From contig JALUAR010000107.1 in assembly GCA_027050975.1 (NCBI GenBank), positions 1 through 53,923 on the forward strand: a DNA stretch of 53,923 nucleotides. Reading direction: 5' to 3'. Made by a program: the position numbers and the translations under genes. The notes below the pieces were generated by a model. It was not told where the DNA came from. It saw nothing but the letters and a program-made list of their open reading frames with translations, and ran no database searches. Of this stretch, positions 3,093 to 33,101 are shown one piece after another. Source of the stretch: Thermodesulfovibrio sp. (lineage in GTDB: Bacteria; Nitrospirota; Thermodesulfovibrionia; Thermodesulfovibrionales; JdFR-85). Position 1 is the first letter of the stretch; each line of letters begins with the position of its first letter.

Positions 3093-4481
3093 TCAGGCTA
3101 CTGTTTCGGTAGCAGTAGATGTCACCTCCACAGGCTCTTTACCAAGCTTGAAGAAGTCAATTACAAAGAGCCATGCACCGTAGAGGAATCCAACTCCAAA
3201 GATAGCCCTCAGTGCCCAGAACCAGAAGTTGTATGTTGCCTTTACTGTTACGTAGTCAAGACCGATAAGCCTCTCCATATAGGTCTGTACCATGCCAGCA
3301 CCTGTTAGAGTGAGTACAATAAATATCATTGATATTGTCATCCACCAGAAGGATCTGTATCCTCTCGATGTGTTGAACTCATTAACACCTCTTATTAATG
3401 GCAGTGTTATATAAATCATGGACATCACCAGAAGGACATAGGCACCGTAGAATGCCAGATGTCCGTGTGCAGTGGTTATCTGGGTGCCATGTGTCCATTT
3501 GTTAACCTGTGGAAGGGTATGGATAACACCCCATAATCCTGCTCCCACGAAGTTGAAAATAGCATGGCTTGTTGCATAAAACAGACCCAGCCTGTTTGTG
3601 ACAACACGATGTTTCCTTGTAGTTCTGAAGGCATCCCAGACCATTAGCAGGAGTGGAATAGGCTCAAGGGAGCTGAAAATGCCGCCAACCCACAGCCAGT
3701 ACTTTGGAGTGCCTATCCAGTAGTAATGATGTCCTGTGCCTAAAATTCCAGTAAACAGTACAAGCCCAACCTCTATATACATCCATCTTTCAAGTACATG
3801 ACGTTCTGCATTTGTAACCTTCATGAGCATAAATGCCAAGAGTGCGCCTGCAATCACCTCCCAGGCACCCTCGACCCACAGATGAATTACCCACCACCAC
3901 CAGAACTGGTCCTTAACCATACTCTTTGTATAGAACATCCCAGGCAGATACATAAGGGCAAGAAAGGTGAGTCCTCCGAGCAATGTACCCTGGATGCCTG
4001 TCCAGCGCTTACTTTTGTACATTGTCATAAAGTTATTAATCAGAAATAGGATCACTGAGAGGGCAATCAGCCAATCTGCCCAGCGTGGTGCCTCGATATA
4101 CTCTCTGCCCTCATTTAAAAGCAGTGTGCCTGCAACGAATTTGTTTGCCTGAGGATCAAATCCCATCCAGATGTAACCCAATACAACTGCTGTAACAGCT
4201 ACAACTGTGGCCCAGAACTGGAACTTCGCCAGGGGAATACTCCAGAGTTCACTCTGAGACTCTTCAGGTACAACATAATAGGTAGCTCCCATAAGTCCCA
4301 TCAGAAGCCATACAACAAGGGCATTTATATGCAGATCTCGTATTATGTTGAACTTCAGAGGGAAAAAGTCAGGCCATATGAATTGAAGTGCTGCGATAAT
4401 GCCCACAAGGACCTGTACAAGAAAGAGTAGCACCGCAAAGGTATAAAAGTTTTGTGCTATCTTTTGACTCTCGTATTTCAT
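3093..4481 (-). CDS. norB: Nitric oxide reductase large subunit NorB (cNOR-type haem-copper superfamily member)
   Basis: 462 aa, 12-TM-like. Carries the NOR-specific VIHLWVEGAWE (His plus Glu at the FeB site), the GTGHHYYWIG His pair, and HGHLAFYG haem ligands. GGGAGG SD. Confidence 0.9.
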   Translation of the reverse strand: MKYESQKIAQNFYTFAVLLFLVQVLVGIIAALQFIWPDFFPLKFNIIRDLHINALVVWLLMGLMGATYYVVPEESQSELWSIPLAKFQFWATVVAVTAVVLGYIWMGFDPQANKFVAGTLLLNEGREYIEAPRWADWLIALSVILFLINNFMTMYKSKRWTGIQGTLLGGLTFLALMYLPGMFYTKSMVKDQFWWWWVIHLWVEGAWEVIAGALLAFMLMKVTNAERHVLERWMYIEVGLVLFTGILGTGHHYYWIGTPKYWLWVGGIFSSLEPIPLLLMVWDAFRTTRKHRVVTNRLGLFYATSHAIFNFVGAGLWGVIHTLPQVNKWTHGTQITTAHGHLAFYGAYVLLVMSMIYITLPLIRGVNEFNTSRGYRSFWWMTISMIFIVLTLTGAGMVQTYMERLIGLDYVTVKATYNFWFWALRAIFGVGFLYGAWLFVIDFFKLGKEPVEVTSTATETVA

Positions 4482-7243: not shown

Positions 7244-8482
7244 TTATTTTTCTGCTAACTTGAACTCCTTGCGAAGTTTCTCAGCCTCATCTTTGATCTT
7301 CTGTAGCGTCTCCTTCATTGGAGCCCAACCATACCAATGCATATAGTCAGCGTTCATGTGGAATGCTCCCTGGAAGGTACGCATTCTGTACTCAAGGAAC
7401 ATTACGTAAAGATCCTGTTCAATAGAGCTTTTTGCTTCGTAAAACTGCAAGAGATCAGGAGCCACTTTCCAATTGGCAGGCTTCTTGAGTATTCCATCTT
7501 TGTAGAGACCTTTGACTATTCTGATGGCCTCTGCCATCAACTTATCTGCTTCACGGATGATCTTGTCTCCTGCGTCCAGCTGTGCCTTTGCATATGAGGT
7601 GCTGTGGCACTTGGAGCAGATATTGATCATTTTTGTACGTTCCCTGTCGAACTCCTCTTTAGTGAGTCTGGCCACCTTACCAGCCTTCACCACCTCAAGC
7701 CTCTCCGTGGGATTTCCTGCATCATCGAGCACTCCAAGGGCCTGAAGTATTGTGACCCTGTCTTTCAGCCACTCCTGGTCATCTTCAGGTAGCCTGACAG
7801 CAAGGAAGCCCCACGAGGTCATTACATTGTGGTCACCGTCGGGCATGTGGCAGGTCTGGCATACAGGGGCTCTGTCACTGCCTTTGCCTTCAATCTGCCA
7901 GATAGTACCATGCTTTGAGGTGGACCACATCTCCCACTGGGGATGGTCGAATCCCATATGGCATGACTGACAGGCCCTTGGGTCACGTGCTTCCTCTTTT
8001 GAGAAGGTGTGCCTTGTATGACATGAATCGCAGGCACCACTACCATAGCGGTAGGCTCTGGCTTCTTCCTCAGACTTCAGACCGATTTTATGACAGCCTG
8101 AACAGCCCTTGTACCCTTCACCAACTATCATTGTTGGCTGATGCTGGAGCATTGGCATAGCCTTCATTGCAATCCAGCCAAGTGAGTGTTTTCCTGCCTT
8201 GTACTGCTCAACCTGCTTCGGATGACAACTGTTGCATGTCTCCGGAGTTGGCAGCTTGGCAAGTGATGCATCCTCAGCACCCTTGTTGTGCTCTGAACCA
8301 TGGCAGGTAGAACAGTCAAGCCCTATCTTGCCCATCTTACCAGAAAGGAACTGTTTGACTATTCCAGGTGTCTCCTTCTCATGACAGGAGATACACTGAC
8401 TCTTAGCCTCTACGTTGGTTCCGAACATCAAGAAAGCAGCACTTAACAGCAGTAACAGAAAAAGATACCTCCTCATTAGCAC
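7244..8482 (-). CDS. Exported octahaem c-type cytochrome, hydroxylamine-oxidoreductase (HAO / epsilon-Hao)-like
   Basis: Signal peptide and eight CXXCH motifs (CISCH, CSTCH, CNSCH, CSGCH, CDSCH, CQSCH, CQTCH, CSKCH). HAO/NrfA-like CQSCHMGFDHPQWEMWSTSKHG and a C-terminal helical region GAFHMNADYMHWYGW. The haem count is certain; the family call is from memory. Confidence 0.8.
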   Translation of the reverse strand: MLMRRYLFLLLLLSAAFLMFGTNVEAKSQCISCHEKETPGIVKQFLSGKMGKIGLDCSTCHGSEHNKGAEDASLAKLPTPETCNSCHPKQVEQYKAGKHSLGWIAMKAMPMLQHQPTMIVGEGYKGCSGCHKIGLKSEEEARAYRYGSGACDSCHTRHTFSKEEARDPRACQSCHMGFDHPQWEMWSTSKHGTIWQIEGKGSDRAPVCQTCHMPDGDHNVMTSWGFLAVRLPEDDQEWLKDRVTILQALGVLDDAGNPTERLEVVKAGKVARLTKEEFDRERTKMINICSKCHSTSYAKAQLDAGDKIIREADKLMAEAIRIVKGLYKDGILKKPANWKVAPDLLQFYEAKSSIEQDLYVMFLEYRMRTFQGAFHMNADYMHWYGWAPMKETLQKIKDEAEKLRKEFKLAEK

Positions 8483-29151: not shown

Positions 29152-32100
29152 TTACACTGCGGCAGAGGTGCCTCCATTGAGGGCATCCCTTATTTTAAAG
29201 GCGAGTTCTTTTATATTGAAGGGTTTTTCTATAATACCTTTAATTCGGTATTTCAGATCTTTCTGGATGAGGTGTTTGCCATAGCCAGTGAGGAGTATGA
29301 AGGGTATATTAGGTTTGATTTGTATCATACTCATGTACAGGTCCGTACCCTTCATTTCAGGCATTATCTGGTCAGAGATTACCAGATCAAAACCCTCTGG
29401 GTCTGACTCAAAAATCTCCAAAGCCTCTTTTCCGGAAGATGCCGTTATTACAGAGTATCCGAGAGCCATGAGTATTGACCGGCCTGTCTCCCGGATGATC
29501 TTCTCATCATCCACGATGAGAATCTTTTCTGTTCCTCTGGGAAGGGTTTGATCAATTATTATATCCTCGGACATAATATGACAGATGTCTGCCACAGGTA
29601 GATATATCTCAAAGGTGCTTCCCTTGCCTGGAGAAGATACCAGGTCAATAAAACCTCCGTGGGCATCCACTACAGAGTAGACAACACTTAAGCCAAGGCC
29701 GGAACCCTTGCCCTCGGGTTTGGTGGTAAAGAAGGGATCAAAGATCTTATGCTGAATATCCTTCTGAATGCCCACGCCCGTATCACTTACTTTAAGAACG
29801 GCATATTCGGATGCTTCCTTGCCGGAGGATGACAGGGCATCGGCGGATTGTATCCTTTTTGTCTCTATGGTGAGGGTCCCTCCATCTGGCATGGCATCTC
29901 TGGCATTTACGCATAGATTCATGATTACCTGGGTTACCTGAGCCCTGTCTATATTGACATAGAGAGGCTCTTCCGCTTTTTTAAATACTACAGCTATATC
30001 CTCACCAATGATTCTCTTAATTAATTTCATAGACTCTTCAACAACCGCATTGAGATCCTGGACCCGTCTGTCCATGGGGGCCTTCTTGCCGAATATAAGA
30101 AGCTGTCGTGTAAATTCCTTTGCCCTGTCTGCTGCGCACTTTATTGTCTCAAGGTGTCCTTTTATCGAACTATCTTTGGTTTTAAGTATTGCAAGTTCGG
30201 TATGTCCTACAATAGCGGTAAGGATATTGTTAAAGTCGTGAGCTATTCCGCCCGAAAGGTTTCCAATGGACTCCATCTTTTGTGCCTGAAGCAGTTGCTG
30301 ATGGAGTCGATCCTTCTCCTTTTCCATCTCTTTCAGAAATGTGATATCCTTGATGCTGTGGATAATTCCAGAAATCTCGCCATTTTCTCCGCGGATAAGA
30401 GATGTAGTGTAGATTAAATGCGTACCTCTGTCTTCATCAAAGATCTCCTTTATGGATGGCTTTCCGGTAACAACTGTTTCATAATGGGGACATTTCCCCG
30501 TAGAGTGTTTATCAAATTGGATGACTTCATGACATTTTTTTCCTAACACATCAACTGAGTTACCGATGAATTTATAGAATGCCCTGTTTGCCTTGATAAT
30601 CGAAAATGTGCGATCCGTAATGAAGAGGGGATCGGAGAAGGACTTAAACGTCTCTTCCCAGTATCGCTGCTCTGTGATAACTTTTTCAAAGAGAAGGGCC
30701 TTCTCTATTGCTATCTCCGCAAAGTTTGAGAAGATATTGAAGAAATGTATGTCATCAAGATTCGGAAGATACTCCTGTTGCCAGAATGCAATAAGCAGAC
30801 CGAGTTTTTTTCCCTTTTTTGTAAAGAGATATCTTGTGTATACGGATTTGACATTGAGTCTCGAAGCAATCTCATGCAAGGGTTTCCATCTGTCGCTTTT
30901 AAAGATGTTGAGACTACAAAAAGTGTTATCCTTCATATTAAATTCCGAATCCAGTCTTTCGAGATGTAGAACCAGGTTCTTGTATATTGTCTTATCCACA
31001 CCCCTTATGGATGCGGGATAGAGTGTGTTGAAATCCTGATTGTAGAGAAAGATGCCGGATACATCAGGCTTCAGTATCCTTGTTAAGGCATCTGTTATCA
31101 CCTCCAGGACCTCTCTCTTTTCATCTGACTTGGAAAGAACCCTGACAATCTCTGTAAGAGCGGTTAAACGTTCGGTATGTTCCTCCAGTTCCTTGAACTG
31201 AAGTATTCGATTGAATGAGGTATTTATTGTATCTGTGAGGATACTGAAAAAATCTTCTTCAGACTTCCTGAAAGCCTTTTGCTTTATATAGGCAATATTA
31301 TAGACTCCGACCACCATATCATCCCTTTTCAGAGGTATAGAGACAATTGTCTCGTAGCCAGCCTCTTTGATAATTGGTTTGAGCCTGTTATTGGGAAACT
31401 CATCGATTGTCTCAGCAATATAAGTTTTTCCTGACTGAATGGCAAAGGCTGCGACACATTCATCAAGCCCTATCTCGCTAAGATAATCTTCAAGTTTTTC
31501 ATTTTTCGGAAGTCCGCTCTGCCTGAGAAGTCTTTTGTTCTTACGATCGATTAAATAGACATTACAACCGTCAGCATTTAGGGAATCCATACCGAGATTA
31601 ACAAGGCTCTGGAAAAAGTCTTCCATTCTGTTTATTGACTGGAGTTTTTCAGCATAAGTGCCAAGAATCTTCTTCTGTTCATTAAGCTTATAATGTTCCG
31701 TGATATCCATTCCCATTAAGATTGCGTAGGGGATCTCATCACCAACATAAAATGGTATGTACTGAACAAGAATATATTTAAGACCTTTTTCGGATATATG
31801 AGAATTGATGATATGGTGTCTCTTCCCTTGAAAGGCAATTAAAAGACCGCATTCTCTTGGTTTTTCGGAGTCTTCGGAGTGGCAGGGCACTTCAAGTCCG
31901 TGAAATACCCTATAACATTCCTTCCCTATGACTTCGGGTTCGGTCTTTCCCATATATTCCAGGGAATTCTTATTCGCATATTGTATTTTATAGTTACGAT
32001 CAACTACAACAACCATATTCGTCATGTTATCAAGAAGGTTTTTCAGATACAATCTTGATTCAGCCAGTTCCTTCTGAATCCTGGTAATCTCTTCTGCCAT

Positions 32101-32622
32101 TATGTTTAATGAATCAGCGATCTCGCCTATCTCATCAGAGCCATTATCAACTATCGGATCCCATCCCTGTCCTCTGAACATTGCAAGCCTGTTTTTGATA
32201 TTTTTTAACCGCCGTACAATAAAGAAATGAATATATCCACCTCCGAAAAAGAGAAAGACTCCAAGGAGGCTTAAATACCCTATTAAGAGTCCCTTCCTGT
32301 GGATTTTTCCGATCTCTTTGACAGGCAGTGATGTAAGGGATATGGTTACGAAGCCGAGGGTTTTTACCTCTCTTGAGTGACATTCCAAACATTCCGGTCT
32401 GTTTTTAAGACTAACAGTTAAGGCAGAAGGGTTCGTCTTTTTGGGTGTCCGGTGACATGAAGAACAGGGGGGCAGGGAGAAAAAGGGTAAAGAGGTATTT
32501 TCCTTATTCAGGCTGTACCAGAGCCGTCCGGAGTTGTCATAAATCTGCAGATCTTTAAGCCATCCAGCCCTCTGAAGCCTTAAAAGGTCGCTCTTGAGGG
32601 ATTGAAGATCATTGGAAAGCAT
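29152..32622 (-). CDS. Large hybrid sensor histidine kinase: CXXCH-containing periplasmic domain, TM, HAMP, PAS, GAF, PAS, HisKA, HATPase, C-terminal receiver
   Basis: CSSCH (32452-32466) and CLECH (32377-32391). TM helix LLIGYLSLLGVFLFFGG, HAMP, H-box (GIAHDFNNIL), G-boxes (DTGVGI, GSGLGLS), and a receiver (ILIVDDE…LVISDQIMPEMKG…KPF). Coordinates run from the first ATG; the true start is probably upstream (see findings). Confidence 0.88.
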   Translation of the reverse strand: MLSNDLQSLKSDLLRLQRAGWLKDLQIYDNSGRLWYSLNKENTSLPFFSLPPCSSCHRTPKKTNPSALTVSLKNRPECLECHSREVKTLGFVTISLTSLPVKEIGKIHRKGLLIGYLSLLGVFLFFGGGYIHFFIVRRLKNIKNRLAMFRGQGWDPIVDNGSDEIGEIADSLNIMAEEITRIQKELAESRLYLKNLLDNMTNMVVVVDRNYKIQYANKNSLEYMGKTEPEVIGKECYRVFHGLEVPCHSEDSEKPRECGLLIAFQGKRHHIINSHISEKGLKYILVQYIPFYVGDEIPYAILMGMDITEHYKLNEQKKILGTYAEKLQSINRMEDFFQSLVNLGMDSLNADGCNVYLIDRKNKRLLRQSGLPKNEKLEDYLSEIGLDECVAAFAIQSGKTYIAETIDEFPNNRLKPIIKEAGYETIVSIPLKRDDMVVGVYNIAYIKQKAFRKSEEDFFSILTDTINTSFNRILQFKELEEHTERLTALTEIVRVLSKSDEKREVLEVITDALTRILKPDVSGIFLYNQDFNTLYPASIRGVDKTIYKNLVLHLERLDSEFNMKDNTFCSLNIFKSDRWKPLHEIASRLNVKSVYTRYLFTKKGKKLGLLIAFWQQEYLPNLDDIHFFNIFSNFAEIAIEKALLFEKVITEQRYWEETFKSFSDPLFITDRTFSIIKANRAFYKFIGNSVDVLGKKCHEVIQFDKHSTGKCPHYETVVTGKPSIKEIFDEDRGTHLIYTTSLIRGENGEISGIIHSIKDITFLKEMEKEKDRLHQQLLQAQKMESIGNLSGGIAHDFNNILTAIVGHTELAILKTKDSSIKGHLETIKCAADRAKEFTRQLLIFGKKAPMDRRVQDLNAVVEESMKLIKRIIGEDIAVVFKKAEEPLYVNIDRAQVTQVIMNLCVNARDAMPDGGTLTIETKRIQSADALSSSGKEASEYAVLKVSDTGVGIQKDIQHKIFDPFFTTKPEGKGSGLGLSVVYSVVDAHGGFIDLVSSPGKGSTFEIYLPVADICHIMSEDIIIDQTLPRGTEKILIVDDEKIIRETGRSILMALGYSVITASSGKEALEIFESDPEGFDLVISDQIMPEMKGTDLYMSMIQIKPNIPFILLTGYGKHLIQKDLKYRIKGIIEKPFNIKELAFKIRDALNGGTSAAV

Positions 32623-32835
32623 TTTTTCTCTGATGGTTTCGGTGAGAAAGTTTACATGGCTTATAGTCTCTATATGAAGGGTTTTTTCTATAATATCTCT
32701 ATGTTTGGTGTTTTCATAAAAAATGGCAATAGTAAGAACAACAGCACTTAATAGAAGTGCAAGAAAGGATAACCTTCCATTTAGTCCTTTAAATGGAATG
32801 CCGCGGTACCTCCACTGAAAAATCTGAAAGGAGCT

Positions 32836-33045
32836 TTACTCCTTTGCAGACTTTGCTTTGTTTGCATACTGGTAAAAATCACACTTCAGGCAGGTGTCTA
32901 TTTTTTTTGCAAATGTGCCCTGTACCTCTCCTCCGCACATTGTGCCTGCAACCAACCAGCAGATCTTTCCGGATCGCTTTGTGTATGCAGGACAGTCACC
33001 GGTTTTGTCCCTTCCGCATTTTTTAAACTCCCAGCAGTTCATCAT
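32836..33045 (-). CDS. Small Cys-rich 'two-CW' domain protein (putative metal-binding)
   Basis: 69 aa. MMNCWEFKKCGR…DCPAY…ICWLVAGTMCGG…CLKCDFY has two CW motifs and eight Cys. Strong AAGGAGGTGG SD. I recall RefSeq labelling this fold 'two-CW domain'. Confidence 0.7.
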   Translation of the reverse strand: MMNCWEFKKCGRDKTGDCPAYTKRSGKICWLVAGTMCGGEVQGTFAKKIDTCLKCDFYQYANKAKSAKE

Positions 33046-33086
33046 CTCTCGCCACCTCCTTGATATTTTATCAACAGGTCAGATGA

Positions 33087-33101
33087 GCAAATTGTGTGCC
33101 A
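33087..33101 (-). promoter_or_regulatory. Sigma-54 (-24/-12) promoter driving the two-CW gene and probably the kinase
   Basis: The minus strand reads CTGGCAC-ACAAT-TTGCT, against the consensus YTGGCACGR-N3-TTGCW. The -12 element lies 42 nt upstream of the two-CW ATG. Confidence 0.6.

Follow-up and report, generated by a model that had tools for sequence, protein, structure and literature searches.

Only two genes of Escherichia coli, infC and pcnB, are confirmed to start with AUU, and AUU and CUG are among the four near-cognate codons that initiate at 1-2% of the AUG level in this organism, a class that does not include GUA and GUU (bioRxiv 10.1101/063800). In a reporter study, AUU was 6-8 times below AUG and GUG and similar to UUG (PMC3592434). 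We analyzed a stretch of 53,923 nucleotides from the uncultured Nitrospirota bacterium Thermodesulfovibrio sp. (contig JALUAR010000107.1 of assembly GCA_027050975.1, referred to as the window), which contains the gene for a hybrid histidine kinase directly downstream of a gene for a small two-CW protein. Comparison with orthologous loci indicates that the kinase probably starts at AUU (32799-32797) and not at the annotated ATG (32622), which would make it a protein of 1215 residues. The annotated kinase looks 59 residues too short, with its first transmembrane helix (TM1) encoded behind the ATT, and the start seems to belong to a rare, though known, class of non-standard starts, namely near-cognate initiation as in infC and pcnB. 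As in these two genes, the AUU would be combined with a normal Shine-Dalgarno (SD) sequence, and gene finders that accept only ATG, GTG or TTG miss such genes. In genes of the infC and pcnB type, the weak start gives low expression, which we infer for the kinase as well. Unlike the AUU of infC, which is a sensor in the autoregulatory loop of IF3, nothing suggests such a loop here. In further contrast to infC and pcnB, the start position varies across the kinase clade (GTG, ATT and probably CTG) without a conserved AUU, and is predicted from sequence.

For the sensor part of the kinase, the periplasmic haem-c PAS-like sensor domains of the Geobacter sulfurreducens chemoreceptors GSU0582 and GSU0935 (PDB 3B47 and 3B42) are a possible precedent. 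Like them, the kinase is predicted to have a CXXCH-bearing periplasmic sensor domain between two transmembrane helices. Unlike them, it has two CXXCH motifs, of which only the second is invariant, and its output is a HAMP-PAS-GAF-PAS hybrid histidine kinase rather than a methyl-accepting chemotaxis protein.

Both genes lie on the minus strand, and all coordinates without a locus prefix refer to the window (Table 1). The two-CW open reading frame (ORF; 33045-32836, 69 aa) is closed by a single TAA (32838-32836), which is followed by 71 in-frame sense codons (32835-32623, translated as SSFQIFQWRYRG-IPFKGLNGRLSFLALLLSAVVLTIAIFYENTKHRD...) without any stop. The first ATG (32622-32620) then opens the 1156-aa kinase ORF, which ends at 29152. 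This arrangement of two genes in one frame had been noted in a preliminary description of the stretch, and all its coordinates were confirmed. The same holds for the lack of start codons, as a codon scan found no ATG, GTG, TTG or CTG among the 71 codons, in which the only near-cognate codons are ATT (five times), ATA (three times) and ATC (once). Based on the composition of the stretch, one would expect 71 codons without a stop with a probability of ∼0.007, and 71 sense codons without any of the four start codons with a probability of ∼0.02. ATT 32799-32797 is the sole near-cognate codon of the stretch that has an SD sequence at a functional distance, and the spacing (GGAGG plus 9 nt) is the same as for the two-CW ATG. 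No SD sequence was found for the annotated ATG 32622, just upstream of which the sequence reads CCGAAACCATCAGAGAAAAA, and the Met at this site is not a conserved Met position in the alignment of the orthologues.

The comparison covered nine orthologous loci (designated by L numbers, proteins by P numbers) from metagenome-assembled genomes of Nitrospirota/Thermodesulfovibrionia, where a GTDB genome scan placed the family. Kinase orthologues were reached from the 90%-identity cluster of the two-CW protein, via the other contigs in this cluster and the kinases neighboring there. L003, L005, L016-L019 and L011 have a two-CW gene of 70-79 aa, then a spacer of 36-39 nt and a kinase of ∼1180-1208 aa (1207-1208 aa where the homologous start had been called). 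The layout of L012 is the same, but with a two-CW protein of 64 aa, a spacer of 35 nt and a shorter kinase of 770 aa, which starts with an ATG 17 codons further upstream. The kinases of L003, L005 and L016/L019 start with GTG after GGAGG plus 8-9 nt (9 nt in L003), and the start region of L011 reads GTG-TTT-TTG. In the DNA alignment, GGAGGTaccgcggcATT CCA TTT AAA of the window is matched with GGAGGTgacgaggtGTG TTC TTG AAA of a GTG orthologue, and in the protein alignment IPFKGLNGRL... of the window is matched with VFLKSLTTRL... of the orthologue. The N-terminus of the L003 kinase (VFLKSLTTRLVLVAALLSILVLTVVFFYDYRKH) matches that of the window (IPFKGLNGRLSFLALLLSAVVLTIAIFYENTKH) residue for residue, and those of L005, L016/L019 and L011 do likewise. 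By DNA and protein alignment, the ATT and GGAGG of the window are positionally homologous to the GTG and GGAGG of four orthologues (L003, L005, L016 and L011). Initiation at ATT, which was one of three explanations offered in the preliminary description, is strongly supported by this comparison. It had also been asked whether the ATT is an ATG in relatives. These four orthologues have GTG at this position, and the sister clade described below has GTA or GTT.

Another question was whether the 71 codons are conserved at the protein level, and here the answer differs for the two sides of the ATT. The 58 codons after it are conserved. Between the ATT and the annotated Met (residues 2-59), identity to five orthologues is 19-38% (33-38% for four of them) and similarity is 50-66%, with identity values comparable to the 27-38% of the periplasmic domain (residues 60-200). 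The 12 codons between the TAA and the ATT show no conservation as protein, and match the non-coding SD spacer of the orthologues. As described before, the conserved part begins with a positively charged stretch (K4, R9), followed by a clean transmembrane helix (residues 10-28 by hydropathy). TM1 is kept in all orthologues in the alignment, and is part of the kinase only if translation starts at or near the ATT. When 1.8 billion representative proteins were searched exhaustively, without a profile, for matches to the N-terminal 217 aa, 18 were found, and most of their alignments begin at query residues 11-17 and at residues 3-28 of the matched protein. The predicted TM1 is an extreme N-terminal element of the sensor family, including the distant homologues that were inspected.

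The helix matters for the topology of the sensor. Attachment of c-type haem is a periplasmic process, and a start at ATG 32622 would leave both CXXCH motifs in the cytoplasm. The earlier argument that a CXXCH domain needs an upstream transmembrane helix to reach the periplasm is sound, and the homologues bear this helix at their extreme N-terminus. In the deposited 1156-aa model, which drops TM1, a probably haem-binding periplasmic sensor looks like a cytoplasmic domain with one transmembrane helix, which would mislead predictions of topology and function. The kinase would be mis-annotated by pipelines that accept only ATG, GTG or TTG, and the same kind of N-terminal mis-call affects the relatives L036, L016 and L021. 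Gene callers chose three different wrong N-termini for P0029, P0030 and P0027, starting P0030 (L036) from a GTG inside TM1 and P0029 (L021) from an upstream GTG. The L016 protein P0027 was called from a downstream ATG.

Several observations weigh against a start at the ATT. GGAGG is common, with 168 copies on both strands of the window. As estimated from this frequency, the chance of finding GGAGG 4-11 nt before one of nine near-cognate codons is ∼11%. Moreover, GGAGG followed by a near-cognate in-frame codon recurs within genes, for example as GGAGG plus 7 nt plus ATT at 32244 in the kinase gene itself. The pairing of ATT with GGAGG at 9 nt, to which the preliminary description had pointed, was confirmed, yet such pairing is not rare by chance in the window. 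The presence of an SD sequence was therefore dropped as independent statistical support; because GGAGG is so frequent, it is weak evidence alone, and homology carries the argument. It also counts against the ATT that the orthologues might in fact start with the TTG or CTG at +2 (or +1) and not with the GTG at position 0. In that case the window, where +2 is TTT, would have no homologous start. Were the TTG/CTG at +2 the true start of the family, the start in the window would have moved by two codons to the ATT. In addition, a terminator-like hairpin sits between the two-CW and kinase genes, and the predicted minimum free energy (MFE) structure pairs GGAGG with AUUCC at the start, which would reduce initiation further. 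Finally, full-length searches of the collections identified no relative with more than 53% identity, so that conservation of the ATT within the lineage cannot be checked. A metagenome scan with the orthologue alignment also gave no new lineage (L033 is the L003 contig, L034 resembles L012, and L035 is a partial match). A word-indexed search with the N-terminal 271 aa returned nothing, including the identical protein P0001, which was returned for the full-length query, a limitation of the tool.

In a neighbor-joining tree of the first 540 residues, the window kinase is sister to the kinases of L020, L021, L036 and L023, with identities of 56-73% among these four and of 45-50% between them and the window kinase. 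None of these four kinases is accompanied by a two-CW gene. L036 has the same synteny as the window (NMT1_2 - kinase - QueH - DUF2905), but lacks the two-CW gene. In the sister clade, the position homologous to the ATT is occupied by GTA or GTT, and ...GGAGGTGA...CGAGGT lies before this region. L036 and L023 have a stop in frame two codons upstream, so that no ATG, GTG or TTG is left before TM1 and the first canonical start lies inside TM1. In L020 and L021, a GTG is found in frame five codons upstream, but it abuts AAGGAG without a spacer and is a poor candidate. GUA and GUU were rejected as start codons, as they have two mismatches to the initiator anticodon and fall outside the near-cognate class, and the CUG at +2 was favored. 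The most plausible start of the sister clade would be this CUG, six nt after GAGGU, at a position where the GTG clade has a TTG (or has it at +1). All five ORFs, from the window and the four sister lineages, are intact over the 540 codons that were checked.

These data bear on the main rival explanation, that a canonical start was lost and the gene crippled. There would then be no protein, or only the 1156-aa form from Met 32622 without TM1, and the gene would be a young pseudogene or encode a neofunctionalized cytoplasmic kinase. This explanation is in line with the choice of the gene callers, who took ATG 32622 as the first canonical start, with the poor quality of AUU as a start codon, and with the lack of a close relative in the searched collections that would show a conserved ATT. 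In principle, a shorter transcript could arise from a weak sigma-70-like match at 32717-32690, but such matches are about as frequent as expected by chance (2 found versus 1.9 expected), and this one was rejected as an internal promoter. However, the ORF is uninterrupted over 1215 codons, a clean helix and conservation at the level of the family are seen in the 58 codons before the Met, an open stretch of 71 codons is improbable, and the annotated ATG has no SD sequence. Recent damage is also unlikely because the sister clade lacks a canonical start as well and its ORFs are intact, through 27-44% mutual divergence. By the tree, the apparent lack of ATG, GTG or TTG before TM1 is long-standing and tolerated in a monophyletic group, and is not a fresh lesion in one genome. 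We therefore regard a crippled gene as unlikely, and a start at the ATT as the better account.

Errors in sequencing or assembly, or a point mutation of very recent origin, could have generated the TAA, splitting a fused gene as suggested in the preliminary description, or the ATT from an ATG or GTG. A change from ATG to ATT takes a single base, and a single population was sampled. The window is 100% identical to scaffold_1731 of ENA ERZ23495399 over 12.2 kb and to the Logan assembly of SRR10312489 over 5.4 kb, with reads that are possibly common to all. An assembler error is excluded, since three assemblies made with different software, perhaps from the same reads, are identical over 5-12 kb. 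Furthermore, the orthologues have two separate genes, and the sister clade indicates that the non-canonical state is old. A split by error or recent mutation is thus not supported, and we consider it very improbable.

Readthrough or recoding of the TAA would yield a fusion of two-CW protein, TM1, sensor and kinase. Such a polyprotein had been suggested on the grounds that a single TAA, and no other stop, interrupts the common frame, and the stop codon of the two-CW gene is surrounded by a hairpin. However, two genes share a frame by chance in one of three cases, and the frames of the two-CW and kinase genes differ in L005, L016 and L012. L003 and L011 do have both genes in one frame, but with a second in-frame TGA in the spacer. 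In the window, the SD sequence lies within the 12 spacer codons, which show no conservation as protein. Close two-CW homologues were stand-alone proteins of 38-105 aa in 44 of 44 cases, none of them fused, and the sister-clade kinases do without a two-CW protein. The two-CW gene is found directly upstream of the kinase in L003, L005, L016, L011, L012 and L037, and wherever orthologues with a two-CW gene were measured, there were always two separate genes with a spacer of 35-39 nt. To the earlier question of whether the two are fused in orthologous loci, the answer is no for the loci that were measured. Neither readthrough nor an ancestral fusion is supported by these data, and there is little reason to believe in readthrough. 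As judged from the alignments, the shared frame across one TAA is a coincidence, and two-CW is a small partner of these kinases with a gene of its own, and not a domain of the kinase.

Translation might also start elsewhere before TM1, either by termination-reinitiation or scanning at ATT 32823-32821, the fifth codon after the TAA, or by SD-directed initiation at another near-cognate codon. The two-CW stop is 12 nt from ATT 32823 and 36 nt from ATT 32799, and the end of the two-CW gene (AAAGGAG) resembles an SD sequence. In E. coli, post-termination reinitiation has been documented, at a level that falls with distance (PMC3592434). However, AAAGGAG is 15 nt from ATT 32823, too far for a normal SD sequence, and the region of this ATT is non-coding spacer in the orthologues. 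The sister clade, without a two-CW gene, lacks a canonical start all the same, so that coupling is not a general solution. Altogether, such a start is somewhat less credible than the loss of function discussed above. Least probable of all, and rejected, is a start at the out-of-frame ATG 32781-32779 (AAAGGActaaATG), from which a -1 frameshift in CCTTTC would lead to the kinase frame. A weak AAGGA stands 4 nt before this ATG, the frame of which is open for 10 codons before a TAA. The ATG is present in no orthologue, CCTTTC does not fit the canonical X XXY YYZ pattern of slippery sites, and a product without the two positive charges ahead of TM1 would violate the positive-inside rule.

With initiation at the ATT, expression of the locus could proceed as follows. 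A sigma-54-type promoter would drive a shared transcript of the two-CW and kinase genes. The two-CW protein would be translated from ATG 33045 up to the TAA as a separate small cytoplasmic protein, encoded 36 nt upstream of the kinase. GGAGG would then recruit a ribosome 9 nt upstream of the near-cognate AUU 32799, on which fMet-tRNA would initiate a protein of 1215 residues. Its N-terminus (M/I-PFKGLNGR) and the following helix of 19 residues would form TM1 as a signal anchor, with K4 and R9 staying in the cytoplasm. Residues ∼30-168, with CSSCH (112-116) and CLECH (137-141), would be periplasmic, between TM1 and TM2 (170-196), and TM2 would lead to the HAMP domain and then the cytoplasmic PAS-GAF-PAS-kinase-receiver part. 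With such a weak start codon, the sensor would be present in few copies. We infer all four of the actual use of AUU, the expression level, the single operon and the attachment of haem.

The promoter assignment rests on the element TGGCACacaatTTGC, the only perfect consensus match in the 54-kb window, where 0.10 would be expected. Similar elements (TGGCAY-N5-YTGY-like) are found upstream of the kinase unit, with or without two-CW gene, in L011, L012, L020, L021, L023 and L036, and genes for NtrC-type regulators are adjacent in L003, L005, L016, L011, L012 and L023. No such regulator was detected among the ten window ORFs that were scanned. The element probably drives the transcript of both genes.

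The 60 nt around the junction are predicted to fold into two hairpins (-20.1 kcal/mol, z = -3.0), either of which would reduce expression of the kinase even more. One is the pairing of GGAGG with AUUCC mentioned above. In the other, the anti-SD sequence CUCC of the window pairs with AAAGGAG at the 3' end of the two-CW gene, which results in a terminator-like hairpin around the stop codon that is not conserved in the orthologues. Its 5' arm corresponds to the last five codons of the two-CW gene, and translating ribosomes would therefore prevent its formation. The spacers of the GTG clade are predicted to form a different hairpin (CCUCCC...GGGAGG, in L011 CCUCCUGA...UCAGGAGG), with loops and stem extensions that vary by lineage, and a second GAGGU stays unpaired just before the start. 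As in translationally coupled operons of small proteins and kinases, this spacer hairpin of L003, L005, L016 and L011 is predicted to occlude the SD sequence, and a terminating ribosome would open it. The window differs from such operons in that the anti-SD sequence pairs with the two-CW 3' end, and the sister clade differs in having no two-CW gene.

Instead of a defect that is tolerated, near-cognate initiation could be a device that evolved to control expression across the clade, with a whole Nitrospirota lineage having swapped the GUG of a haem-type redox sensor kinase for AUU in this genome and for CUG in the four sister lineages. We put this forward tentatively, as the less probable of the two. 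If it were true, kinase synthesis would be held at a few per cent and would respond to IF3 or ribosome status and to the pairing between SD sequence and start. In this genome, it would also respond to two-CW translation via the stop-codon hairpin. The locus reveals no new mechanism, as near-cognate initiation is already known. What it adds is a sensor-kinase clade of five lineages that would share the trait, and these deeply diverged lineages make a comparative case for AUU and CUG initiation outside model organisms.

Pfam domains identified in the kinase are HAMP, PAS, GAF, PAS, HisKA, HATPase_c and REC, with HAMP below threshold (20.9 bits versus a cutoff of 25). A Paired_CXXCH_1 match was weak (E-value 0.0079, 16.3 bits, under the 20.6-bit cutoff). 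A profile of the sensor domain had marginal similarity to the haem-c PAS sensor GSU0582 (3B47, E-value 0.0034) and to 3B42 (E-value 0.9). An AF2 model, of low confidence (pLDDT 62, alignment of 5 sequences) and informative for topology only, has a long helix (residues 4-61), a beta-sheet and TM2. With this low-confidence model, Foldseek gave WalK as the best match, and also GSU0935 (3B42, E-value 0.04) and other PDC/PAS sensors. The window also encodes a multi-haem cytochrome c (Multi-haem_cyto, Paired_CXXCH_1; 7244-8482, minus strand) and a COX1-family oxidase subunit (3093-4481, minus strand). Their presence suggests that the organism has the periplasmic c-type cytochrome machinery that the CXXCH motifs of the sensor would need.

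Table 1. Features of the two-CW/kinase locus and of orthologous loci
Feature	Position	Strand	Remarks
Sigma-54-type -24/-12 promoter-like element TGGCACacaatTTGC	33087..33101	-	TGGCAC-N5-TTGC; 41 nt upstream of two-CW ATG
Two-CW SD sequence, GGAGG	33055..33059	-	9 nt before ATG 33045
Two-CW gene, 69 aa	32836..33045	-	NF045718 two_CW_domain, 73.3 bits versus cutoff 35, model positions 1-79 of 80
12-bp hairpin with two-CW stop in loop	32823..32850	-	Terminator scan; UUUUU next at 32822-32818; terminator-/attenuator-like
Kinase SD sequence, GGAGG	32809..32813	-	9 nt before ATT; aligned with GGAGG in orthologue spacers
Proposed kinase initiation codon, ATT	32797..32799	-	Aligned with GTG start of L003, L005, L016, L011
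Revised hybrid histidine kinase gene	29152..32799	-	1215 codons plus stop; TM1, CXXCH sensor, TM2, HAMP, PAS, GAF, PAS, HisKA, HATPase_c, REC
Predicted TM1, residues 10-28 from ATT, LSFLALLLSAVVLTIAIFY	32716..32772	-	Kyte-Doolittle hydropathy 2.5; preceded by K4 and R9
Annotated kinase ATG	32620..32622	-	Choice of automatic annotation; Met60 of proposed protein
First CXXCH, CSSCH, C112-H116	32452..32466	-	Not present in L011
Second CXXCH, CLECH, C137-H141	32377..32391	-	C137, C140 and H141 invariant in all orthologues
Predicted TM2, residues 170-196	32212..32292	-	Kyte-Doolittle hydropathy; HAMP next
Start-homologous positions in sister clade (window 32799)	L020:3001, L021:3001, L023:1528, L036:1236		GTA CCC CTG; in L023 GTT CCC CTG
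Spacer anti-SD:SD hairpin, GTG clade	L003:6250-6275, L005:5237-5262, L016:2193-2214, L011:2968-2987		7-10 bp, CCUCC(C)/(G)GGAGG

Two-CW genes also occur apart from the kinase. The closest two-CW homologues, P0098 and P0099 (84-86% identity), adjoin genes for molybdopterin oxidoreductases and not kinases. Proteins at least 80% identical to the two-CW protein of the window are encoded alone in L008 (3971-5201), L009, L010 (5001-5207), L038 and L039. The contexts of these lone genes include a position after NMT1_2 without a kinase, a position before rpsF-ssb-rpsR, and a neighborhood of genes for molybdopterin oxidoreductase, Fe-S and FAD proteins. From these contexts, two-CW genes would represent a family of small mobile genes in Nitrospirota. 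The NF045718 family has no described function, and no paper was returned when full texts were searched for 'two-CW domain'.

In L037 (1745-2520; GCA_964542175.1, CAZITN010000011.1), TM1 and the CXXCH sensor form a separate ORF, called as 137 aa, which overlaps the ORF for TM2, HAMP and kinase by GTGA, as the result either of a natural split of the sensor or of a frameshift. An ATG that gives MKGLHQVRGIGGRL is probably the true start of the sensor ORF.

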